Shown piece by piece: positions 1 through 16,289 of a DNA stretch of 64,000 nucleotides. The stretch covers positions 288,001 through 352,000 of the IMG/VR virus record IMGVR_UViG_3300014208_000023, one strand, 5' to 3'. Under the pieces are notes generated by a model. It saw nothing but the letters and a program-made list of their open reading frames with translations, searched no databases and was not told the DNA's origin. The position numbers were made by a program, and so were the translations under genes. Source of the DNA: a virus (taxonomy: Duplodnaviria > Caudoviricetes). The number at the start of each line of letters is the position of its first letter. Within the stretch, counting starts at the first letter, position 1.

Positions 1-617
1 TGATATTGCTTTATAATGTCGATAATTTCATATTCATTTCTTGGAGAAAGCTTTAAGCTCTTAAAAAACTCAAAATACTTTCTATTAAAAACATAGGCGC
101 CAGTTACAGCATAGTTATCAGTGTCATTTGATAATATTTTTGGCTTTTCTTCAAATCTAACAATAACATCATTTAATATGGACACAACTCCAAATTGATG
201 AAGATTAATGTTTGTTGAATTATTTAAGAATATTTCAGCCCCATTACTTTTGGTATCGTATTTTATAGGCTTTTGGAAAGCATTATCTCCCAAGATAACC
301 GCAAATCTTTCATCCTTAATAAAAGGCTCACAAAGATTAATTGCTTGAGCTATTCCTCTAGCCTCTCTTTGATAGACGTAATTTATTTTAAGCCCAAGCT
401 CTTGACCATCCTTAAGGAGATCTACAACTTTGGCAAAATGTTCTCCTCCCAGAACGACCGTGACATTTTCTATTCCAGATTTTTTAATCGTATTTATTGA
501 GTAATCTAAAATAAGCTTATCATGAATTGGATGAAGATGCTTATTGCTTATCTTCGCAAATCTTCCAAGTCTCGTGCCCTGACCGCCAGTGAGAAGTATC
601 CCGGATTTTATTTCCAT
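1..617 (-). CDS. rmlA: Sugar-1-phosphate nucleotidyltransferase, RmlA/RfbA-like (partial, runs off window edge; absent from ORF track)
   Basis: Manual translation from ATG at 617: MEIKSGILLTGGQGTRL...NKHLHPIHDK...YVYQREARGIAQA...VILGDN...FEEKP...AVTGAYVF...SPRNEYEI; NTP-transferase motifs. Confidence 0.85.
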   Translation of the reverse strand, partial: MEIKSGILLTGGQGTRLGRFAKISNKHLHPIHDKLILDYSINTIKKSGIENVTVVLGGEHFAKVVDLLKDGQELGLKINYVYQREARGIAQAINLCEPFIKDERFAVILGDNAFQKPIKYDTKSNGAEIFLNNSTNINLHQFGVVSILNDVIVRFEEKPKILSNDTDNYAVTGAYVFNRKYFEFFKSLKLSPRNEYEIIDIIKQY

Positions 618-1090
618 CAACCTTTTATATATCTCGGAAGAATCCCTCCCTTAACGAATTCCTCTTGCTTATCTTTAGATAGCGTATTAAAGCCAGAAAT
701 GGTCTTTCTGCAGTAGTATCTGTGGCAGCTACAAGGCATTGACCAGTCAGTTTCGGAGTCAGTGCTGGTAAGAGAATAGTCAAACGTTATCTCTTCATCT
801 TTTGATATGGGGCGTAAGGCTATTAGGAAGGCAGAATTGACAACCGCCTTAACATAACAATTAGGATTGCAGTTATGATTTATAAAAAATGGAGTTTCTT
901 TTTCCAAATCAATAAAACGATCTATTCCAACTTGCAGAACATTATCTCTCTGCTCGCCAGATAGCTTGCTTACTTGTTCGCCCGTTAAATTGTTGGCCGG
1001 AAATTTAAGAATAACATCATTAGTTTCAAATGGCCGACTTGTAAAGACTCCACGCTTGTTATCATTTATTTTTTTAATAATAAGTGTCAT
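617..1090 (-). CDS. SET-domain protein (lysine methyltransferase fold) with post-SET
   Basis: RGVF, FINHNCNPN, EEITFDY and post-SET CSC(x4)C motifs. Confidence 0.9.
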   Translation of the reverse strand: MTLIIKKINDNKRGVFTSRPFETNDVILKFPANNLTGEQVSKLSGEQRDNVLQVGIDRFIDLEKETPFFINHNCNPNCYVKAVVNSAFLIALRPISKDEEITFDYSLTSTDSETDWSMPCSCHRYYCRKTISGFNTLSKDKQEEFVKGGILPRYIKG

Positions 1091-1560
1091 GTGAAAAATA
1101 TACTCATTTTGTTGAAGGTTTTATTGAGCTGCTCAAATGGTTTCCAGCCTTCTGGCACATTAAGTGCTCCATTATGTATGTCGGAATATTTGCTAATTGG
1201 CAATTCTACAATAGAAAACCCAAAATTATTTTTACAACATCTCATTGTGATTTCTTGAGAAAAATCTTCGCTTTGTTTAATTCCAGCTATGTCACTAAAT
1301 ATAAGTGCAATTATATCTTTTTTATGCTTGTAGAATAATGTCTTAATAATTCTTGGGCTATATTTAATGTAATCGTGAATCATAATGGCAATTTGCGTGT
1401 CACTATAATCCTTGGTATGACTTAGCAAAGCAATCTTATCAAAAAAAGATATTATCTCTTGCTCGCTACCTAAATGAGTGGCAGATATATTCATATTATG
1501 AATATTTATTGTTCTATGATCATTTTCCCATACACTAGTTGTTTTTTTAAAGATCGCCAT
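1087..1560 (-). CDS. Hypothetical protein
   Basis: 157-aa ORF overlapping both neighbours in operon fashion. Confidence 0.6.
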   Translation of the reverse strand: MAIFKKTTSVWENDHRTINIHNMNISATHLGSEQEIISFFDKIALLSHTKDYSDTQIAIMIHDYIKYSPRIIKTLFYKHKKDIIALIFSDIAGIKQSEDFSQEITMRCCKNNFGFSIVELPISKYSDIHNGALNVPEGWKPFEQLNKTFNKMSIFFT

Positions 1561-2437
1561 TTTTAGTTTCTAATTCTTTTAGAATTTTAATTATTGTTTC
1601 TTCATATAATTTATGATCAATATTGTTGGATTTTAATAGATTTTCTTTTGAAGAAAGAGGCCGAAGATTAGATAACGCCCATGCTTTTTTACACTCAATA
1701 TCTTTTATTGATGAATAATTGAAAAAAGAATGAGGAATAATATGATCTAGTTGCCATGTCCAAGTTGATGCGTCATTATCGTCCCAAGTTTTTGAATTAT
1801 ATGTGCTCTGATTTTCCCAAGTCATCCATGCTTCGAAAAGTGATTCTATATGAGTCTTAATTTTTGATGGATAATCTTTTCCAAATATAGATAAGCAGCC
1901 TATGTTGTTTTTTATAGAATTATTTTGCTTAAGCGCTAAATTTATTGCTCTAGACATTATCTTTCTAATTTTATAGGATGGATCTACTTGTCTTCGTATT
2001 TTATTTCTTTTTGATTTTTTAATATTTATTTTTTCTTTATTATTTTGCTGATAAAGCTTAATCTTCTCTTTAATTCTATATTTATTTTCAGAGTATCTTT
2101 TTTTAGATTGTAATATTAAATTTTCTTTATTATTAATATAATATAATTTACTATATTCAATTAATTTATCTCTATTTTCAATTCTATATTTCTTATTTTT
2201 ATTTAAAATTTTATCTTTATTTTTGTTATAATTTTCTTTTTTCTTTTTAGTTAAGACCTTTTTATTTTTTTTTCTATATTGTTTTTGATATATGGATATT
2301 TTATTTTTATTTTTTTTAGAAAAATCTTTCATATATATTTTGCGACAGTCTTTGCACACATTTCGTGTGGCCGCAAAACATTTTTTTGATTTTCTTAATC
2401 CACATGGCCCAGAGCACTTTTTCAAAAAATTATTCAC
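1547..2437 (-). CDS. HNH endonuclease with Lys/Asn-rich N-terminal region
   Basis: CxxC N-terminus, C-terminal WQLDHIIP...NLRPLSSKENLLKSN. Confidence 0.75.
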   Translation of the reverse strand: MNNFLKKCSGPCGLRKSKKCFAATRNVCKDCRKIYMKDFSKKNKNKISIYQKQYRKKNKKVLTKKKKENYNKNKDKILNKNKKYRIENRDKLIEYSKLYYINNKENLILQSKKRYSENKYRIKEKIKLYQQNNKEKINIKKSKRNKIRRQVDPSYKIRKIMSRAINLALKQNNSIKNNIGCLSIFGKDYPSKIKTHIESLFEAWMTWENQSTYNSKTWDDNDASTWTWQLDHIIPHSFFNYSSIKDIECKKAWALSNLRPLSSKENLLKSNNIDHKLYEETIIKILKELETKNGDL

Positions 2438-3209
2438 ATTCTAATGTGTTTTTATTATTAAATATAGAAAAGAGCCAGTCTTTCTCATGCGAGAATAATG
2501 GGAGCTCGTCATTTATAATTAGTTTATGCTTTATCTCTTGGCTTTTAGGATTTAATTTTGGACTTCTATATGCTCCAACCCCTCTTTTAAATGGAAGTGG
2601 GTATGAATTAAAATCAATCTTGCATTCTTCATATAGAATCTCTGATTTTTGTTTCGGACTTTTTCCTGCCAACATTTGCTTAACTTCATCTGAATTGTAG
2701 CGCTTTAGAAGCTCGTAAAAGCACGCCTGCGATAATGCCGTATGAAAGCAGTTTTGCTGCATATGTATTATAGTATTTGTAAGCTCCATTATGCTGGGAA
2801 CCACGAAAGTCTTTGCGGTAAATACGGCATCACCCAAAAGCTTTATGTCTTTTGTGTCCTTAATTTTATTGAACTCTAGGGTGGCTAGAGATGATGCGGC
2901 CGATACTATGGCCTGTATTTTGTTGTTATACCATGCATCCGTGTTAGATGTTTGGTCGTTTCGCATAGCTACCACGATTTGATCATTAAAAGTAAATGCA
3001 AAGATTACACCATCTACTTCTTGACACAACTTTACCATGGCAGCGATCATTAGCTCCATAAAATCAGGAGAGAACGGCTTATCTACCAAAGATGAAAGCT
3101 TTGAAAAAGACCGGCCATTCAAAACAATTACTACTGGTAATCGCTTCATAAGCTGATGATCTGACAATTCTTGATAGGAGTTAATCCTATCTGTTAGAGA
3201 TGCTTCCAT
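2430..3209 (-). CDS. tRNA-His guanylyltransferase (Thg1/TLP)-like protein with degenerate active site
   Basis: SLTDRINSY, RLPVVIVLNGRSF, KPFS, FTFNDQI, FKRG follow TLP layout; RLDG reads VLNG and SDE reads NDQ. Confidence 0.85.
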   Translation of the reverse strand: MEASLTDRINSYQELSDHQLMKRLPVVIVLNGRSFSKLSSLVDKPFSPDFMELMIAAMVKLCQEVDGVIFAFTFNDQIVVAMRNDQTSNTDAWYNNKIQAIVSAASSLATLEFNKIKDTKDIKLLGDAVFTAKTFVVPSIMELTNTIIHMQQNCFHTALSQACFYELLKRYNSDEVKQMLAGKSPKQKSEILYEECKIDFNSYPLPFKRGVGAYRSPKLNPKSQEIKHKLIINDELPLFSHEKDWLFSIFNNKNTLECE

Positions 3210-3217
3210 TAATACCT

Positions 3218-3228
3218 TATATATCAGC
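3218..3228 (-). promoter_or_regulatory. GCTGATATATA motif, candidate extended -10-like promoter
   Basis: Same 11-mer recurs at 6751-6761; lies just upstream of the SD and ATG of the Thg1-like gene. Confidence 0.3.
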
Positions 3229-3703
3229 CAGAGCCCAATTTATTAGATATAACCTGACAAATATTAATTACCTCTGATTTAAAAGTGGATGCTTTTGGCT
3301 CAGGAACATCAATATTTGAAACCCTATCTTTTAGATCTGATATTATTTTTTTCATACCATCAATAGAATATGGGTTCTCGTTTGATGATACGACATCATA
3401 TATCCATTTTGATAATGAATATATATTTTTTGTACTATTTGTAAATTGGCTTCCACTAATGCTTGGCGCCTTCCAAGTATTACTGAAATCTAGTTTTCCA
3501 TCAGTAAGAATAAATAAATACTTATTGAATAAGTTTATTACCTTCTCTATATCTTGTGCAAACTCTGGCTTTTTAGAAAAAAGATTAACGCGATAATTAG
3601 GTATTTGCGACAAAGATATCGTGGGAGCCTGCGTATTAACTGTTGGCACGGCAGTTGTTTGGGCTAGCTTCTTCCAAAACTTGATTCTTTCAGAGATTAT
3701 CAT
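3224..3703 (-). CDS. Hypothetical protein
   Basis: 159-aa ORF coupled to ung. Confidence 0.65.
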   Translation of the reverse strand: MIISERIKFWKKLAQTTAVPTVNTQAPTISLSQIPNYRVNLFSKKPEFAQDIEKVINLFNKYLFILTDGKLDFSNTWKAPSISGSQFTNSTKNIYSLSKWIYDVVSSNENPYSIDGMKKIISDLKDRVSNIDVPEPKASTFKSEVINICQVISNKLGSG

Positions 3704-4379
3704 TACCTAAATGCCAGTCTATTGCAGTAAGTCCCTTACTTTTTAGAAAGCCATTGACCGTTGAAAATGGTGAGCTTCTAAAAAACCCACTGTGGGCAGA
3801 AAGAGGAGATGGATGAACCGACTCAATTATGAAATGATTACGATTAGTTATGAGTTTTCTTTTGGACTTTGCAAAATTTCCCCACAAAATAAATACTAGA
3901 TTTTCTTTTTCATCATTAAGCTTTTGAATTACCCTATCAGTAAATTCTTCCCAGCCCTTATCCTTATGACTATTTGATAGTCCTTCACGAACCGTGAGGA
4001 CGCAATTTAAAAGCAATACTCCTTGTTTAGCCCATTTTGTAAGATCACCATTCTTGGAAATTGGTATGTTTAAGTCGTTTTTAAGCTCCTTAAAAATATT
4101 CAAAAGACTAGGTGGTAATGGAAAAGATTCCGGAACGCTGAAAGAAAGTCCTTGGGCTTGGCCAGGATTAATATATGGATCTTGTCCTATAACTACAACT
4201 TTAGTGTTTTCAAAATCACAATGCTTAAAAGCATTAAAGATATTTTCTTTTGCTGGAAAAATATTAAAGGATATTTCTTCTGTCGAAAGAAATTTCGAAA
4301 GATCTCTAAAATATTCTTTTTTCATTTCTTCAACTAAAAGTGTTTTCCATTCTCCCGTGAGCGACATTATTTCATCCAC
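3690..4379 (-). CDS. ung: Uracil-DNA glycosylase, family 1
   Basis: GQDPY, AQGLSFSV, PPSLLNIFKEL, GVLLLN, HPSPLSAH motifs. Confidence 0.97.
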   Translation of the reverse strand: MDEIMSLTGEWKTLLVEEMKKEYFRDLSKFLSTEEISFNIFPAKENIFNAFKHCDFENTKVVVIGQDPYINPGQAQGLSFSVPESFPLPPSLLNIFKELKNDLNIPISKNGDLTKWAKQGVLLLNCVLTVREGLSNSHKDKGWEEFTDRVIQKLNDEKENLVFILWGNFAKSKRKLITNRNHFIIESVHPSPLSAHSGFFRSSPFSTVNGFLKSKGLTAIDWHLGNDNL

Positions 4380-5538
4380 CCTTTAGGGTTTTAATTTGAG
4401 TATTTATTCTTCCCTGTAACTCATCTATGTAATCTTGAGGATTTGCATCAGGATTTGTTTGCACTCTAATTGCCAATTCATTTATGTATGCAATTGGCCA
4501 CTTATTAACTTTGTCGGCGAAAGAATCATATAGATCCCCAAGAACGCCCTTTATAACCTGGTCGTCCAAATACTCTATCGTTCTCAATTCATCAAAACGC
4601 CCTGGCCGCAGAACGGCAGGAGGGAACGCCTTCAGCGAATTGGTTATAGCTATAACCACTTTAGTATGGCGGTGAAGCCACTCTAAAAATTCTAGCATTG
4701 ATGTTGTTTCTGAAAAGTAATCAAAATCATCCAATAGAACGGCTTCTATTTCGAATGTTTCGAGTAGGAATGAGATAATTCCCATTACGGAAGCATTTGT
4801 ATTTTTGCTATACTTAAACTTTAATGTATTCAAATTAAGATCTTGAAAAATCTTGTGCGCCATAGTAGATTTTCCGGTTCCAGGCAGTCCATTAAGAATG
4901 ATTGACCTTGGCAACCCTTTGGCAATGTATCTTTCCAAATACGAGCTTAAGTCAGATGCTGTTTTAGATGGGATTGCTATGCTCTCTTCTGGCTTCAGAT
5001 CGAATTTAATTGTTGGATATCCGCTAGATCCGGTCTTACTTTCTTCCACTATAGTTACCATCTTGGAATTTCCACCATTCATTTTCTCTTTCATAATGAA
5101 ACGAAGAACATCATTCTTGTTATTCTCTGATGAGCGAAAATAAATGGCCCTTTTTGTTTTGCCTAAAGTCCCTACTGGCAGAGTGTAGATCATTGTCTTA
5201 TCTGTTTCATAGGCAAACTTGAACTGTCTTTTTGGAAAAGATTCTATGCCAGAGCTCAATATATCATAAAGGGCCTGTTGTGTATAGCTTGCGGCTAACG
5301 ACTCCCACCCATTAATAGTAGAGAAGAAGCTTTCGCTATCTCCGCTGATAATTTTTACTCCAGTATTAAATGCAGCAACCCCTCCTTCTACGAAGGATAA
5401 GGGGCTTTTGCTTTGAGCGAAACTAGACACGCTTCTGGCTATCGACATGCCCATATCAAGAACGTTTTGATGCGCAAGTATGGTTTGCAACATACTATAT
5501 TTTGCTTCTTGAAATTTCTGACTTTTGAAAATATTCAT
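4372..5538 (-). CDS. AAA+ ATPase (paralogue 1)
   Basis: Walker A GLPGTGKS, Walker B VLLDDFD, ITNS, LRPGRFD. Confidence 0.88.
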   Translation of the reverse strand: MNIFKSQKFQEAKYSMLQTILAHQNVLDMGMSIARSVSSFAQSKSPLSFVEGGVAAFNTGVKIISGDSESFFSTINGWESLAASYTQQALYDILSSGIESFPKRQFKFAYETDKTMIYTLPVGTLGKTKRAIYFRSSENNKNDVLRFIMKEKMNGGNSKMVTIVEESKTGSSGYPTIKFDLKPEESIAIPSKTASDLSSYLERYIAKGLPRSIILNGLPGTGKSTMAHKIFQDLNLNTLKFKYSKNTNASVMGIISFLLETFEIEAVLLDDFDYFSETTSMLEFLEWLHRHTKVVIAITNSLKAFPPAVLRPGRFDELRTIEYLDDQVIKGVLGDLYDSFADKVNKWPIAYINELAIRVQTNPDANPQDYIDELQGRINTQIKTLKGG

Positions 5539-6734
5539 CTTGCTGTTTCTGTAAATGTCTTTAGTGCTTTTATTTGATTTTTAACGCGCCTATCTAATTC
5601 TTTTACTTGTTGAGTAACATTGACTTTTGGATTAATAAGTATTCTCTCATTAAGTTCCTTAATATAAGCAACTGGCCAGGCCTTTACTTTTGGATAAAGA
5701 GTTTTAAATCTTGTTCCAAGAATTTCCTTAATAACTTCCTGATCTAATCTGTTGATTGTAATTATCTCATCAAATCGTGCTGGTCGTAAAATTGCCGGAT
5801 GAAATGGCGCCAAGCTATTAACGATACCGATCGTTAGTTTTAGCTTGACATGCATTCTTTCCAAGAATCCCAATAAAGATGCGGATCCTTCTACGGTATC
5901 TAGGTCGTCAAGTATTAGAGCCTCTACTTTTAGAGCGTCAATAATATTCTCAATTGCTTGAAGGTCGGATGTTTGTGGATCATATTTGAACTTAAGGGTT
6001 CGAAGTCCCAGCTCATTTATTATCGTATTGGTGCAGGTTGTTTTTCCGGTTCCAGGATATCCCAAAAATATTATTGATCTATTGATATTTTTATCAATGG
6101 CGGCTTTAATATGTTTGAGATGTTTTGTTGCTGTGGGAGAATTAATTGATTTTAACTCTTCATTCTTTAATAGAAATCTAGTGCCTGCATCAGACCATTT
6201 ATGTGGTCCTCTATGTGCTTTTTCAGTAATAGAAAAAACTTGAGATTTTATTGACTTAAAAGCTTCTTGATATACGAAATCTAATAGCTGCTCTTTTTTA
6301 CCTTCATCCAAACAAAACCATAGTCCCTGTTCATCCCTGCCAATGGATTTTCCATTTGGAAGAGTATATATTTTAGATACTGATTGGTTATTGTATTTGA
6401 AGTTTAGAACTTTGGAGGGATAATTGTCTAATATTGGAACTAGAATATCATAAAGTGGTTGCTGTGTAGTTGCACACACTAACACGTCCCAGCCCTGTTT
6501 TATATTGAAATAGTCTGAGCTCCATGAACCCATAAAATCAGCCATAACATTGAGTGAGCCAAGTCCGCCCTCAACAAATGATAGCCAATTTTTATTGTTA
6601 GCAAATGCGGTTATTGAGCGAGCAACCTCTACTCCAGCCGCAATGTATAAGCTTTTGTCCAGCAATTCTCTAACAAGTTTCCGCTTGAATTTATGAAACT
6701 TTTCGCTATCAAAAAATGATGATTCACTTTTCAT
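5535..6734 (-). CDS. AAA+ ATPase (paralogue 2)
   Basis: Walker A GYPGTGKT, LILDDLD, IVNS, LRPARFD; N-terminus similar to paralogue 1. Confidence 0.88.
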   Translation of the reverse strand: MKSESSFFDSEKFHKFKRKLVRELLDKSLYIAAGVEVARSITAFANNKNWLSFVEGGLGSLNVMADFMGSWSSDYFNIKQGWDVLVCATTQQPLYDILVPILDNYPSKVLNFKYNNQSVSKIYTLPNGKSIGRDEQGLWFCLDEGKKEQLLDFVYQEAFKSIKSQVFSITEKAHRGPHKWSDAGTRFLLKNEELKSINSPTATKHLKHIKAAIDKNINRSIIFLGYPGTGKTTCTNTIINELGLRTLKFKYDPQTSDLQAIENIIDALKVEALILDDLDTVEGSASLLGFLERMHVKLKLTIGIVNSLAPFHPAILRPARFDEIITINRLDQEVIKEILGTRFKTLYPKVKAWPVAYIKELNERILINPKVNVTQQVKELDRRVKNQIKALKTFTETAR

Positions 6735-7954: not shown

Positions 7955-8875
7955 TTAGTTTGCTCTGTTTTCAACAAACCATTTGTAAGTTTTAGCTATT
8001 CCGTCTTCTAGAGACGTTTCTGCCTTAAGCCCAATTGATTTTAGTTTAGAAACGTCCAACAGTTTTCTTGGTGTTCCGTCAGGCTTGCTGCTATTATATG
8101 TGACTGGCCCTTCGTAACCGACAACTTTCTTTATCAAAATCGCCAAATCGTTAATGGTCATATCCTCACCGACACCAACATTAATGAGATCCGGTATGTC
8201 GTCCATAAACAATGTTTCTTTTACTATATTGGCCAGATCTTCACAATACATAAATTCTCTTCTAGCTTTTCCAGTTCCCCATAATTCTACGGACTCTGAA
8301 CCATTTACTTTAGCTTCGTGAATTTTTCGCAGTAAAGCCGGCAACACATGAGAATCTTCCAGATCAAAACTATCACCGGGCCCATACAAATTGGTGGGCA
8401 TTAATGAGTAGCCGGGAAAATTATATTGCCTACAATATGCTCTTATCATTTGCACTCCGGCAATTTTGGCAACAGCATAAGCGTCATTAGTAGATTCTAA
8501 TGGTCCGGTTAGAAGATATTCTTCTTTAATTGGTTGAGGGGCAAATTTTGGATAGATACACGACGATCCAAGAAAACAAAACTTTTTGCAACCATACTTT
8601 CTAGCTGCCTCTATTGTATTTACGGTTATTTGTAAATTCTGCCTAATAAAATCTCCCTGATAAGTAAAGTTTGCCATAATACCGCCAACCTTTGCGGCGG
8701 CCATTACAACATAATCAGGATGGTATTCTTTGAAAAAATCCTCTACTTGAGCTTGATTGGTTAAATCAAGCTCTGATCTAGATTTAGTAATGATATTATC
8801 ATAGTTAGATTTTTTAAGACTGCGCACTACGGCAGATCCTACCATCCCATTATGGCCCGCTACGTAAATGCTCAT
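7955..8875 (-). CDS. fcl: GDP-L-fucose synthase
   Basis: GHNGMVGS, AAAKVGGI, LGSSCIYP, YAVAK, PTNLYGP, SHVLP, REFMY, PDGTPRK. Confidence 0.95.
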   Translation of the reverse strand: MSIYVAGHNGMVGSAVVRSLKKSNYDNIITKSRSELDLTNQAQVEDFFKEYHPDYVVMAAAKVGGIMANFTYQGDFIRQNLQITVNTIEAARKYGCKKFCFLGSSCIYPKFAPQPIKEEYLLTGPLESTNDAYAVAKIAGVQMIRAYCRQYNFPGYSLMPTNLYGPGDSFDLEDSHVLPALLRKIHEAKVNGSESVELWGTGKARREFMYCEDLANIVKETLFMDDIPDLINVGVGEDMTINDLAILIKKVVGYEGPVTYNSSKPDGTPRKLLDVSKLKSIGLKAETSLEDGIAKTYKWFVENRAN

Positions 8876-9873
8876 TTTTTATTTAGTAAATAAAGTTCTT
8901 TTTCAGCCAATTCCATATCATATTGAATCATCTCATCTACCAGCATTTGGAATGAAAACTTTGGTTCCCAACCCAGCTCTTTTCGTATTTTGGAAGAATC
9001 TCCGCATAGAGCATCCACTTCGCTTGCTCTAAAGTATTTAGGATCTATTTCAACATAGTTTTTGTAATCAAGCCCCAGATGAGAAAATACCATCTCAACA
9101 AACTCTAGAACTGAATGCATCTCTCCGCTAGAGATAACGTAGTCTCCAGGATTTTCAGCAGTTATGATTTTAAACATTCCGGCAGCTACGTCCGATGCAT
9201 GAGACCAATCTCTTTTGGCGTCTAGATTTCCTAGATATAGTTTTTCTTGTAGCCCTAGTTTTATACGAGTTGCCGCTCTAGTTATTTTTCTGGTAACGAA
9301 GGTTTCTCCTCGTCTAGCGCCTTCGTGATTGAAACTGATGGCGTTACTGGCATGCATTCCATAAGCTTCTCTGTAGTTTATGGTGGCGTAGAATCCGGCC
9401 ACCTTTGCCACTCCATACGGAGACCTTGGGTGAAATGGCGTTGTTTCACTCTGTGGTGGATTTTCAGATCCAAACATTTCGCTGCTTGAGGCCGTAAGGA
9501 ATCTGGTTTTGGGACTACATTTCCTAACTGCCTCCAAAACTCTCATTACTCCGGTTCCTGTAACGTCCATGGTATAAACTGGAATATCAAAACTTACCTT
9601 AACGTGAGATTGCGCTCCCATGTTAAATAACAAATCTGGCTTAATATCTCCTATCCAGCTAGATAGTGATGCATAATCAGATAGGTCTCCATATGTTAAT
9701 TCTAATTGCGCATCCGAATGCGGATCTTGATAAAGATGGTCTATTCTCTCCGTATTTAGAGAGCTACTTCGACGCTTTAATCCATGAACCTTATAGCCTT
9801 CTTTTAGAAGAAGTTCGCATAGATATGATCCCGTCTGTCCAGTAACGCCAGTAATGCAAGCAGTTTTAGTCAT
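8872..9873 (-). CDS. gmd: GDP-mannose 4,6-dehydratase
   Basis: ITGVTGQTGSYL, AQSHVKVSF, ASSSEMFG, PRSPYGVAK, FNHE, ETFVTRKI, LGNLDAKRDW. Confidence 0.97.
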   Translation of the reverse strand: MTKTACITGVTGQTGSYLCELLLKEGYKVHGLKRRSSSLNTERIDHLYQDPHSDAQLELTYGDLSDYASLSSWIGDIKPDLLFNMGAQSHVKVSFDIPVYTMDVTGTGVMRVLEAVRKCSPKTRFLTASSSEMFGSENPPQSETTPFHPRSPYGVAKVAGFYATINYREAYGMHASNAISFNHEGARRGETFVTRKITRAATRIKLGLQEKLYLGNLDAKRDWSHASDVAAGMFKIITAENPGDYVISSGEMHSVLEFVEMVFSHLGLDYKNYVEIDPKYFRASEVDALCGDSSKIRKELGWEPKFSFQMLVDEMIQYDMELAEKELYLLNKK

Positions 9874-9928
9874 TTAAAGTCCTTAACAATTCTATATCAA
9901 ATGAACAAAAAGTTTTTCAACTAAAATT

Positions 9929-10183
9929 TCATTTTTTACCATATATTTTGGTCGATCCCTGCCCATATAGTTTTTGTGCCTCTCCGGTTTTAACCATATG
10001 ATTTATCTGCTCGTCTATCTGCTGAATAAGATCATTTCTCTGCTGGTTTGCTATGTTAGTAAGGCGAGTGGCATCTGCAATCTCCTTATCTGTAGCGGAT
10101 TTATTCCTCTTAATATCTTCGGCCATCCATATTCTTATATTGGTTACTGATAAGCTGTCAATTAGATTTCCAATAGTAGTCAT
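9929..10183 (-). CDS. DUF4254-like small helical protein
   Basis: TIGNLIDSLSVTNIRIWMAED...NQQRNDLIQQID pattern. Confidence 0.6.
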   Translation of the reverse strand: MTTIGNLIDSLSVTNIRIWMAEDIKRNKSATDKEIADATRLTNIANQQRNDLIQQIDEQINHMVKTGEAQKLYGQGSTKIYGKK

Positions 10184-10977
10184 TGTTTCCTAGTTTTGAA
10201 TTGTTCGATGTCTTCTTGCGTATCATTTAGAAGGTCCCAATACGTATATTCCCAATTTACGGATGGGGTAATCCATTTTGTATTAGTTGGCGGAGTGCTT
10301 GTATCTTCATTAACAAGATCGTGATATTCTAAACCGTTCATTTCGTATAAATCTTGCACGAAGTTTCTAACATTAAACGCCATTCCGGCCCCAACCATAC
10401 AATCTTCGATCTGCCCTATGCTTTTGCTTACGACAAATTTTGTATGAACCATATCTCGCTCGAAGTCCAAATTACCAACACTAATTTTTTCATTATTTAC
10501 GATCGATCTAAATATCTTTCCAAATAGGAAATACTTGCTTCTATACGTTGAATTGAAATAGAATGGGTGAATAAATATAACTTTTTTGTATAGATCGTTT
10601 AATTCACGAAGTTCTTTAATTTTATTTAAGAGAAGTAGTTTAGAAATCGCGTATTCATTTTTAAGATCGAAATTTGGTTCCGTATCTAAAGATATTACTC
10701 CCTCCCCAAACCCTCTCCACAATTCACAACTGGTGTAGCACACTATCTTTTTGGAGTTTTGCAGAAGGGCTTTGATTATCTTTAGTGTGTTCAGATAATT
10801 CGGAGTGATATAGTCAATGTTCTTTTCGTATATTCTCTGCTCGGCAAAAGTAATATATACAGAGTCCCATTGATTTTGTTTTAAATAATTGAAGTCAATA
10901 TTTCTGGAGGAAATTTTGACATAATCATCCGGAAAATACTGGGCTAACTGGGACGAACTTCCTATCACTAAATCCAC
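10180..10977 (-). CDS. Atypical NAD-dependent epimerase/dehydratase (SDR)
   Basis: Degenerate GSSSQLA glycine motif, YAISK (YxxxK), RDMVH. Confidence 0.7.
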   Translation of the reverse strand: MDLVIGSSSQLAQYFPDDYVKISSRNIDFNYLKQNQWDSVYITFAEQRIYEKNIDYITPNYLNTLKIIKALLQNSKKIVCYTSCELWRGFGEGVISLDTEPNFDLKNEYAISKLLLLNKIKELRELNDLYKKVIFIHPFYFNSTYRSKYFLFGKIFRSIVNNEKISVGNLDFERDMVHTKFVVSKSIGQIEDCMVGAGMAFNVRNFVQDLYEMNGLEYHDLVNEDTSTPPTNTKWITPSVNWEYTYWDLLNDTQEDIEQFKTRKQ

Positions 10978-14623: not shown

Positions 14624-15393
14624 TAAAAATACTTCAAAAACAAATCCATTCTTAATTTATGCCCCTCAGCAAATGAGGGGAAATAAGAATTCCATTGAGA
14701 ACCAGCCATATAATGGTAGAACCCATTAGCAACCCAGCCGGCACTTAATCCATATTTGCCACATATAAATAAATCATCTCTAAAATACTGTAAGAATGGG
14801 GTATCTTTGGCTGTGCTAATATAATTTAATATTTGGCTATTTTCCAGAAACTTAACTTTTTCTGGATTACTTTCAATAAAGTATCTGGTTTTCCCACCAC
14901 AATCTAGTCCTGGCTCTAATCCAAAATCTATATTTTTAGGATTTTGTAGAAGAGCCATATTAATGATCGTAAATGCTGGGTAGAAATAAATAATTCCTTT
15001 ACCATCCAATATTTTATATTCAGTTGTGCTTGCCGCAATATTGTTTCCTATAATATTTGAAACATTAATATCTTCTATTGGAAATACATCAGTATGAAGC
15101 AAAATAATAATTTCACAATTATTTTTAACGGCATAGTCTTGTACTGCCCAATTTAAAGTGGCAGCATATCCTTCTGAAGGATTTTGAATCTTATGAATAC
15201 TTTGCGGAACTCTCACGCAATTAATTTTATTATAGGAGGTCACCAGATTTATGGCCGCTTCCATCTCCGGATCCATTGCATCATTAAATAATACAAAATC
15301 AAAATCTTCTTTCATATACTTTTGAAATTGTCTATACATTATATCAATTGGAAACTTATCATTGACAGCAAAAGAGAAAACGGATATTTTCAT
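14620..15393 (-). CDS. Putative GT-A-like protein
   Basis: LLHTDVFP, LDCGG, YHYMAGSQW; glycan cluster context. Confidence 0.5.
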   Translation of the reverse strand: MKISVFSFAVNDKFPIDIMYRQFQKYMKEDFDFVLFNDAMDPEMEAAINLVTSYNKINCVRVPQSIHKIQNPSEGYAATLNWAVQDYAVKNNCEIIILLHTDVFPIEDINVSNIIGNNIAASTTEYKILDGKGIIYFYPAFTIINMALLQNPKNIDFGLEPGLDCGGKTRYFIESNPEKVKFLENSQILNYISTAKDTPFLQYFRDDLFICGKYGLSAGWVANGFYHYMAGSQWNSYFPSFAEGHKLRMDLFLKYFY

Positions 15394-16289
15394 ACAAGCT
15401 CCATAGAATTAATAGTTTCTTGAAGACCGTCCTTCAAAGAAGTAAATGATATATTTGGCATTATTGTTTTTAAGTATTGATTGCTTACGGTTTTCTTTAA
15501 ATTTCCATCAGGCTTACTGGTATCAAATTTAATTTGATGTTTGAAATTGACTATTTCGCCAATCGTAGTTGATAGGTCTGCAATACTAATTTCTTCGTCA
15601 CCGCAACAAATTACTGGTTTTGTGTCGAAATAAACATATACCAATTCTTTTATTATTGAGGCTAAATCTTTAGAATAAATAAACTGCCTTAATGGCTTGC
15701 CGGCACCACTCATTATGACATCAGAATTATTTTTCTCTGCATCTTTAAACTTATTAATTAAGTTTGGTATTAACCTACCAGAAGACATATTGTCATTTGG
15801 GCCATAGATATTTGACGGTATTATTCCAAAGTATTTTCTGCCATATTGAGTGTTATAATTTTGGCACTGTAGCTCAAGCATTCTTTTTGAAAACGCGTAT
15901 CCGGCAAAAGCTCCGGTTAAATTGCCTTCAAAAATCATAGACTCGTCCATAGGAAATTTTGATGGAACTTCTGGAAACATATTGACTGAAAGGCAGCACA
16001 TTACATTTTGAATATTAGATATATTGGCTGCCTCTAATACGTTTTCATTTATTCTAACATTTGTTGAGAACGAAGAAACTCTATCTATATTGTAGAAGCC
16101 AGGAACATATGATGCCAAATGAACAATATAATCTGGCCGCATCTCATTTATAAAACCAATAGTCTGCGATCTTTCCGTTAAGTCACAATCTTTTCTATTG
16201 ATGAATATCCAATTATTTTCACCTGAGCACATAGACTTTAGCGCGCTTCCTACGCAACCATCACTTCCAGTAACTAAAATACGTTTCAT
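15390..16289 (-). CDS. GDP-fucose synthase-like SDR paralogue (probable reductase)
   Basis: VTGSDGCVG, HLAS, YAFSK, PSNIYGP, LRQFIYSKDLA, KPDG; epimerase Cys and His positions read N and R. Confidence 0.85.
   Translation of the reverse strand: MKRILVTGSDGCVGSALKSMCSGENNWIFINRKDCDLTERSQTIGFINEMRPDYIVHLASYVPGFYNIDRVSSFSTNVRINENVLEAANISNIQNVMCCLSVNMFPEVPSKFPMDESMIFEGNLTGAFAGYAFSKRMLELQCQNYNTQYGRKYFGIIPSNIYGPNDNMSSGRLIPNLINKFKDAEKNNSDVIMSGAGKPLRQFIYSKDLASIIKELVYVYFDTKPVICCGDEEISIADLSTTIGEIVNFKHQIKFDTSKPDGNLKKTVSNQYLKTIMPNISFTSLKDGLQETINSMELV

Follow-up and report, generated by a model that had tools for sequence, protein, structure and literature searches.

The window analysed in this study is a stretch of 64,000 nucleotides comprising bases 288001–352000 of the virus record IMGVR_UViG_3300014208_000023, a genome of 428,320 bp with direct terminal repeats and an estimated completeness of 100% (G000). 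Our subject is an open reading frame (ORF) at positions 2430–3209 on the minus strand, which begins with ATG, is free of internal stops and encodes 259 amino acids, and its upstream partner gene at 3224–3703 on the same strand. The ORF is an 'N-type' gene: its product has the fold of Thg1, the tRNA(His) guanylyltransferase, and of the Thg1-like proteins (TLPs), with Asn in place of the first metal-binding Asp. The protein matched the Pfam families Thg1 (PF04446; 8.5e-18, 65 bits against a cut-off of 29.2, profile positions 3–130 of 130) and Thg1C (PF14413; 1.9e-7, 31.7 bits against a cut-off of 26.3) as well as PHROG 4717, annotated as 'tRNA-His guanylyltransferase' (1.2e-35). Among the sequences of the Protein Data Bank (PDB), the top match was BtTLP (4kgk; 1.8e-17, residues 4–247), followed by the Thg1 proteins of C. 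albicans and human. An AlphaFold2 (AF2) model built from 45 homologues reached a mean local confidence (pLDDT) of 88 and a predicted template modelling score (pTM) of 0.85. Using this model, Foldseek retrieved 4kgm (E value 7e-19, TM scores 0.75/0.84), with 3wbz and 5axk within the range of 0.75–0.84, and superposition on BtTLP, C. albicans Thg1, human Thg1 and an archaeal TLP gave TM scores of 0.7–0.84. The assignment to the Thg1/TLP fold is secure, and both the N-terminal palm and the C-terminal domain are present. A preliminary description of the locus had proposed a full-length ORF with the layout of a TLP, and the two Pfam profiles, both above cut-off, together with the PDB, AF2 and Foldseek results bear this out.

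To assign residues of the active site, we used HMMER alignments to the PDB relatives, which are without gaps over the first 103 residues; motif coordinates were verified by translation, and the roles of residues were taken from the studies of BtTLP (PMC3701042) and of MaTLP with tRNA (PMC4820378). At the end of palm strand 1, VRLDGR of human Thg1 or VRIDGA of BtTLP corresponds to IVLNGR in the window protein, of which VLNGR (amino acids 29–33) is encoded at 3111–3125 (here and below on the minus strand). The strand-1 Arg for the incoming nucleoside triphosphate (NTP), which is R27 in human and ScThg1 and R28 in BtTLP, is thereby replaced by V29, and the metal-bridging Asp (human D29, BtTLP D30, MaTLP D21) by N31. 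The canonical QSDE reads FNDQ: N75, D76 and Q77 (2979–2987) stand for SDE, so that the Ser of the activation step (BtTLP S74) has become Asn, the second metal ligand is kept as D76 and the third carboxylate (human E77, BtTLP E76) has become Gln. The set of three conserved carboxylates, D29, D76 and E77 in human Thg1, is therefore incomplete in the window protein, where it reads N31, D76 and Q77. At 2910–2912, within the ungapped part of the alignment, A100 occupies the position of the Lys that acts in trans at the nucleotidyl-transfer site (BtTLP K99', ScThg1 K96). FTAK (amino acids 130–133; 2811–2822) replaces the FDxR motif (FDGR), with K133 at the position of BtTLP R131 (ScThg1 R133). The basic trio for nucleotidyl transfer, R27, K96 and R133 in ScThg1, thus reads V29, A100 and K133 and is not retained. 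HMQQN (amino acids 149–153; 2751–2765) corresponds to WRQ(A/Q)D; M150 replaces BtTLP R147, the strictly conserved Arg of the WRQ motif, while Q151 is kept. BtTLP E12, which braces R28 and R131, is replaced by Q13. In BtTLP, R28, K99' and R131 grip the triphosphate of the incoming NTP, R131 contacting its gamma-phosphate, and the R147A change in yeast leaves 0.9% of the activity (PMC3701042). Alanine at the metal ligands of the known enzymes abolishes activity (PMC3701042, PMC11957112).

Other parts of the canonical site are kept in the window protein. Besides D76 and Q151, these are T39 and F50, both in the purine pocket, and K44 (3078–3080), the equivalent of BtTLP K43, which positions the activating ATP (PMC3701042). 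Outside the palm pocket, the N-terminal R8, the KRG motif (amino acids 208–210) and a basic residue of the following beta-hairpin are retained. The motif and the hairpin (amino acids 211–233) are encoded at 2511–2588; the AF2 model places the hairpin strands at 211–220 and 225–233, and the hairpin carries the basic residues R215, K227 and K229. In MaTLP, R136 reads the 5' nucleotide and C72 of the tRNA, and R215 of a flexible beta-hairpin grips the tRNA elbow (PMC4820378). The M150 column probably corresponds to MaTLP R136, and K227 would be the equivalent of the elbow-binding R215.

To assess how far these replacements are conserved, we collected relatives at two depths. A word-index search returned 45 relatives with identities down to 38%, on contigs of up to 431 kb. 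All 45 had Asn at the first metal site in intact frames, with a mean column identity of 58%; N31, R33, K44, P45, N84 and D85 were invariant and D76 nearly so. The occurrence of the same Asn in all 45 homologues excludes chance or sequencing error. In the three sequences read at this codon, Asn is encoded by AAT, one transition away from Asp. An exhaustive search of 1.84 billion representatives yielded 2,652 family members; the best 150 of these were combined with the 45 for analysis, which left 173 full-length rows. In the FastTree phylogeny, the window protein fell into a clade of 65 rows with a support of 100, in which the first carboxylate is Asn in 59 rows, Ser, Thr or Glu in six and Asp in none. 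IQ-TREE on 83 rows recovered the corresponding clade with 28 rows, wholly non-Asp, at a support of 95. Both methods agreed on one uniformly canonical clade (R-D / K / SDE / D-R / R-D in the order of the motifs), whose sister group radiates from canonical forms at its base to increasingly altered forms inside.

Comparison of the 65 rows with 49 canonical rows revealed a consistent pattern of replacement. All 49 canonicals have Arg in the strand-1 column and Asp in the N31 column; in the clade, the former is Val, Ile, Thr or Ser. D76 and K44 are present in 65 of 65 clade members. The third carboxylate is Glu in 34 and Gln in 20 of them (Glu in all canonicals), and the Ser column holds Asn in 54 of 65, whereas Ser is found in 49 of 49 canonicals. 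Of the residues for activation (ScThg1 K44, S75/76 and N161), Lys is hence universal in the clade, Ser is mostly Asn, and the third (BtTLP M158) varies in both the clade and the canonicals. The K100 column is Lys in all canonicals and in 42 of the 65, with Ala or Ser in the subclade of the window protein. The R133 and M150 columns are Arg in every canonical row, and the latter is occupied in the clade by Lys (31), Met (15) and others. In total, 11 positions conserved at 88% or more in the 49 canonicals are unkept in the clade (K10, R29, D31, Q74, S75, A106, D131, R133, R150, D153 and N157), and about 20 positions are conserved in the clade only, including the basic residues R33, K37, R83, K169, K188 and K229. 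The only conserved acids specific to the clade are E64 and E166, and from the palm topology E64 would lie at the distal end of helix A. At the hairpin, K227 is Lys in 58 and Arg in six of the 65; the aligned column is Arg in 35 of the 49 canonicals.

Arranged by their signatures, the members suggest a stepwise erosion from near-canonical forms. One protein, P0045 (RN.K.HDE.DR.RD), shows the change of the first Asp to Asn and of the adjacent Ser to His, with the remaining signature residues intact. The bulk of the clade additionally lacks R28, D131 and R131 and often keeps K99 and Lys at position 150, and the subclade of the window protein (VN.K.NDQ.TK.MN in the window) further lacks K99, E77 and the Lys at 150. 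In 129 full-length representatives, the first carboxylate is Asp in 63, Asn in 33, Ser in 12, Glu in 10, Gln in five, Thr in five and Arg in one, whereas the second is Asp in 120; replacement thus affects the first in 66 and the second in nine, an asymmetry that would not be expected of a site that was simply abandoned. Elsewhere in the family, a subclade comprising P0078, P0084, P0099, P0101, P0121, P0124, P0127 and others keeps both metal Asp residues and has SDK in place of SDE, with FDxR gone, and in other family members the second carboxylate has become Gly (AGE or GGE). Remodelling of the active site in this superfamily is apparently both diverse and recurrent.

Nine DNA sequences were compared for selection. 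Synonymous sites were saturated, and the apparent ratio of nonsynonymous to synonymous substitution rates (dN/dS) was about 0.1–0.4, values that come from distant pairs with saturated dS and are rough upper-range estimates; they indicate purifying selection. A metagenome scan gave one short locus and a second scan of IMG/VR none, hence the reliance on distant pairs. The fusions of this domain that were found (P0146, 682 amino acids; P0184, 390 amino acids) carried no informative extra domain. With essential catalytic residues missing and the gene kept by purifying selection, the window protein is, on this operational definition, a putative pseudoenzyme. The preliminary description had read the four motifs as VLNG, NDQ, FTAK and HMQQN, and the alignments confirmed each listed substitution. 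Its proposal that several losses in an intact frame point to repurposing is supported as well: a large clade that evolves under purifying selection has fixed these replacements, which is not what decay looks like, and close relatives with the canonical Asp and Glu were not found. The statement that the protein has lost its catalytic residues, by comparison, goes too far. The counterparts of D29, E77, R27 and S75 are indeed replaced, but human D76 persists as the Asp of NDQ and K44 is retained, and the presence of both in all 65 members means that part of the nucleotide/5'-end pocket is under selection. As candidate functions, the description had put forward a shield for tRNA-His, of which this phage has no gene, and a poison of the host enzyme.

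The partner gene encodes 159 amino acids and ends 14 nt ahead of the start of the TLP-like gene, with AAGG within the spacer. A hidden Markov model (HMM) built from the upstream ORFs of three related loci found the window ORF at 1e-7, and one iteration added the upstream ORF of a further locus (L009). The partner occupies the upstream position in the window and in six of eight other distinct related loci, with sizes of 145–195 amino acids; the spacing to the TLP-like gene is 14–17 nt or a 4-nt overlap, except in L003, where a shorter ORF lies about 250 nt away. The eight closest homologues of the partner share contigs with TLP-like homologues. Where the TLP-like proteins are 90% identical, the partners are 65% identical, indicating that the partner evolves faster. 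In its AF2 model (pLDDT 84), an N-terminal helix, which bears a 'K-x-AQ' motif, is joined by a disordered linker to a helical bundle. No match to the partner was obtained in Pfam, PHROG or NCBIfam, nor by Foldseek in the PDB or BFVD, and the ESM Atlas returned generic four-helix bundles only. In L005, a locus that begins at a contig end, the partner position is held by a 159-amino-acid ORF (17–496) with a C-terminal CxxC...CxxC zinc-ribbon pattern, similar to the C-terminal region of the transposon proteins TnpB/OrfB.

The complete genome encodes one gene of the Thg1 family, the altered type, and the same holds for a 97%-complete relative (G002). Of nine related IMG/VR records searched, eight had the altered type alone. 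The ninth, a 152-kb fragment (G004), encodes both a canonical TLP (L012 1477–2229; G004:C1, at about 25.2 kb) and an altered one (L016 1453–2232; at about 78.8 kb), 53 kb apart, indicating that in this phage the altered protein does not merely stand in for the enzyme. The complete genome further encodes 16 tRNA genes, with no tRNA-His among them, an RtcB RNA ligase, and an array of tRNA-shaped RNAs with closed anticodon loops. Shortened acceptor stems, which would make these sealed-anticodon look-alikes natural TLP ligands, found no support: in the ARAGORN drawings, every one of them has a full stem of 7 bp.

Apart from the partner, the neighbours of the TLP-like gene are variable and mostly concern sugar metabolism. 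In three related loci, a 2H-phosphoesterase ORF of the 2H-SAK ('Swiss Army Knife') type (PF22547, 1.9e-6) lies just downstream (L002 8931–9329, L003 9399–9785, L004 1636–2034) and is a possible link to RNA-end processing; it is absent from the window, and a search of the complete genome, in which the control panel gave no signal either, returned none. Overlapping the TLP-like stop by 8 nt, a Lys-rich ORF of 296 amino acids (1547–2437, minus strand) had no Pfam match and is not conserved in relatives; its residues 42–97 match PHROG 36724, and an HNH-like 'DH...N...N' pattern was discerned by eye at its C terminus. Farther on, at 617–1090 (minus strand), the window encodes a SET-domain protein of 157 amino acids (PF00856, 1.3e-15), a homologue of which follows immediately after the TLP-like gene in L009 (8765–9235). 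SET methyltransferases are unusual in phages. On the other side of the locus, two tandem, overlapping AAA+ ATPase paralogues (4372–5538, 388 amino acids, and 5535–6734, 399 amino acids; both on the minus strand) share an N-terminal region of about 200 amino acids without a family match and adjoin a uracil-DNA glycosylase gene (3690–4379). The SET domain, this glycosylase and the low GC content had raised the idea of a eukaryotic giant virus, which was dropped because the record is a phage of 428 kb with terminal repeats. In L007, a relative of 239 kb, at least nine small paralogous ORFs of 86–115 amino acids, forming one BLAST cluster, lie in tandem directly 3' of the TLP-like gene (8795–10348 and 14838–15995).

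To compare the altered type with TLPs of described phages, we searched GenBank by tblastn. Thg1-like genes were present in 149 phage records, and 12 were taken that spread over the ranking, from Bacillus, Stenotrophomonas, Pectobacterium, Ralstonia, Caulobacter, Mycobacterium and Salicola phages, two Lak megaphages and two uncultured 485-kb phages. All 12 keep the metal carboxylates, SDE, FDx(R/K) and (W/Y)RxxD, and 10 keep the strand-1 Arg, which is Met in the two Lak phages. Each fell into the canonical clade, apart from that of the window protein, and so far only huge phages from metagenomes are known to carry the altered type. These canonical proteins, such as gp072 of Bacillus phage FADO and those of Stenotrophomonas phage CM1, the Lak megaphages and Caulobacter phage CcrPW, share with the window protein the family and the carriage by large phages, but none of those sampled has the upstream partner gene. 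The identity of the window protein to canonical TLPs is about 25–31%. BtTLP (4KGK/4KGM; PMC3701042) is the closest match in sequence and fold, with equal length and the same two-domain layout; the pairs K43/K44, D75/D76, T38/T39 in the purine pocket and Q148/Q151, the KRG motif and the hairpin are common to both. The proteins differ in that D30, E76, R28, K99, R131, R147, E12 and S74 of BtTLP are N, Q, V, A, K, M, Q and N in the window protein. BtTLP repairs 5'-truncated tRNA, a chemistry that would be unexpected for the window protein. MaTLP (5AXK–5AXN; PMC4820378) has the same fold (Foldseek 1.5e-14), and its hairpin with a conserved basic residue appears to be kept; its D69 has a counterpart in the window protein, unlike its metal ligand D21 and its R136. 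Reviews of RNA repair in jumbo phages treat Thg1 only as an active enzyme. A full-text literature search returned no paper pairing Thg1 with 'pseudoenzyme' and none linking tRNA-His guanylyltransferase with huge phages. To our knowledge, Thg1 and the TLPs are the only 3'-5' polymerases, and all members studied so far are active enzymes.

Very likely, the window protein is unable to carry out templated 3'-5' addition, because this requires two metals, whose bridging Asp is missing here, and a second NTP, whose binding residues have vanished; alanine at these positions destroys or severely impairs the activity of the known enzymes. Beyond this, we tentatively favour the view that it is a non-polymerising binder of tRNA ends or tRNA-like RNA that works with the upstream partner, as suggested by the conservation of the tRNA-positioning surfaces (R8, KRG, R215 and the hairpin Lys) together with the fixation of new basic positions. 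Such a protein would have retained docking on the acceptor end and elbow of a tRNA-shaped RNA, and it may hold a nucleotide or a 5'-phosphorylated end, perhaps with one metal, without extending it, thus forming a natural catalytic-site 'trap' or an adaptor. It would act jointly with the small helical partner protein, whose faster evolution is what would be expected of the part facing a host factor. Given the heavy investment of this phage in tRNA biology, with its tRNA genes, closed-loop look-alikes and RtcB, a likely role during infection would be to bind and withhold particular tRNA-like RNAs, to mark them or to pass them on.

Several observations weigh against such a binder. The complete conservation of D76 and K44 is more than a dead pocket needs, so that some chemistry may survive, and the carbonyl oxygen of Asn is able to coordinate Mg2+. 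The window protein has an isoelectric point (pI) of 6.5 and a net charge of -1, compared to median pI values of 7.5 in the clade and 8.5 in the canonicals, which is unlike the expectation for a stronger RNA binder. The gene neighbourhood, with its sugar-metabolism genes, is mostly not one of RNA repair, and the proposed match of K227 to MaTLP R215 derives from the alignment.

The first of these points favours the main alternative, which we consider doubtful although of some substance, namely that the protein is still an enzyme but that its chemistry has changed. A site formed by D76, N31 and K44, with one metal or dependent on Mn, would carry out the first step only, a 5'-adenylylation or guanylylation that leaves a cap-like mark, or another reaction at RNA 5' ends, nucleotidyl transfer having been given up. 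Retention of D76 and K44 in every clade member and of T39, F50 and Q151 fits this idea, as do the far more frequent replacement of the first carboxylate than of the second and the fact that Asn itself is conserved rather than drifting. Canonical TLPs use partly separable sets of residues for activation and for nucleotidyl transfer (PMC3701042), and adenylylation is less demanding of metal than transfer, Ca2+ supporting step 1 only (PMC11957112). However, in all structures both steps use two metals that are bridged by the very Asp that is missing (PMC3701042, PMC4820378). The Ser of the activation step is replaced too, the conservation of D76 may be structural, as it lies in the beta2–beta3 turn, and the literature search found no precedent for such an enzyme.

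Degenerate GGDEF domains, in which the catalytic carboxylates are gone, bind GTP or cyclic di-GMP (c-di-GMP) allosterically and serve a regulatory role. These and other palm pseudoenzymes have a related fold and differ in family and ligand, and they are cited as an analogy only. The nearest kin of the Thg1 palm are the GGDEF and Cas10 palms (PMC2904730), and the window protein might by analogy be a nucleotide-binding sensor or regulatory subunit without action on RNA that controls the partner or another phage factor. The kept purine-pocket residues, the reduced positive charge and the tight linkage of the partner gene would agree with such a function. We regard it as distinctly unlikely, as the RNA-docking elements (the basic hairpin residue, KRG and R8) are conserved and new basic positions fixed, while most of the ligands of the triphosphate are missing.

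Since Thg1 and TLPs form tetramers with active and tRNA sites spanning subunits (PMC3701042, PMC4820378), the altered protein could also be a dominant-negative subunit that enters mixed tetramers with a canonical TLP of host or phage and blocks repair of tRNA 5' ends. The fragment encoding both types (G004) lends this weak support. We judge it improbable, however: the low identity to canonical TLPs makes common interfaces doubtful, neither the complete genome nor G002 has a canonical TLP, bacterial TLPs are sporadic, the control panel gave a match only in an archaeon, and the phage RtcB seems to favour tRNA repair rather than to block it. That the gene is decaying, an assembly error or a functionless remnant, as the many missing catalytic residues might suggest, is highly improbable in view of intact frames in at least 45 lineages, strong column conservation with clade-specific invariant residues, dN well below dS and a confident AF2 fold.

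A more specific proposal, which we put forward as unlikely, is that the N-type protein and its partner constitute a new two-gene module of megaphages acting on RNA 5' ends, unlike the known action of the family, either as a substrate trap or as a one-metal cap enzyme. As a trap, the module would capture 5'-damaged or 5'-triphosphorylated tRNA-like RNAs, for example blunting a host tRNA-cleaving defence or alarm signal. As a one-metal enzyme, it would install or remove a nucleotide cap without polymerising.

The altered protein, a member of the known Thg1/TLP family, is shared by a large conserved clade and accompanied by a linked partner gene. Pfam, PHROG and the JGI pipelines label such genes 'tRNA(His) guanylyltransferase', a label that inflates tallies of the 'tRNA repair' capacity of huge phages. 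The clade represents a large, old and conserved branch in which the bridging metal Asp has been replaced, the site for the incoming nucleotide dismantled, the tRNA-docking parts kept and a linked partner gained. If the protein binds without extending, it would be a natural example of a repair polymerase turned into an RNA-binding adaptor in the conflict between phage and host; if catalysis persists, it would represent new chemistry on the Thg1/TLP fold. Should the two-gene module hold true, the wider radiation, in which the first carboxylate has given way to N, S, T, E or Q (66 of 129 representatives), would make up a large functional branch of the 3'-5' polymerase superfamily that has so far gone unrecognised.

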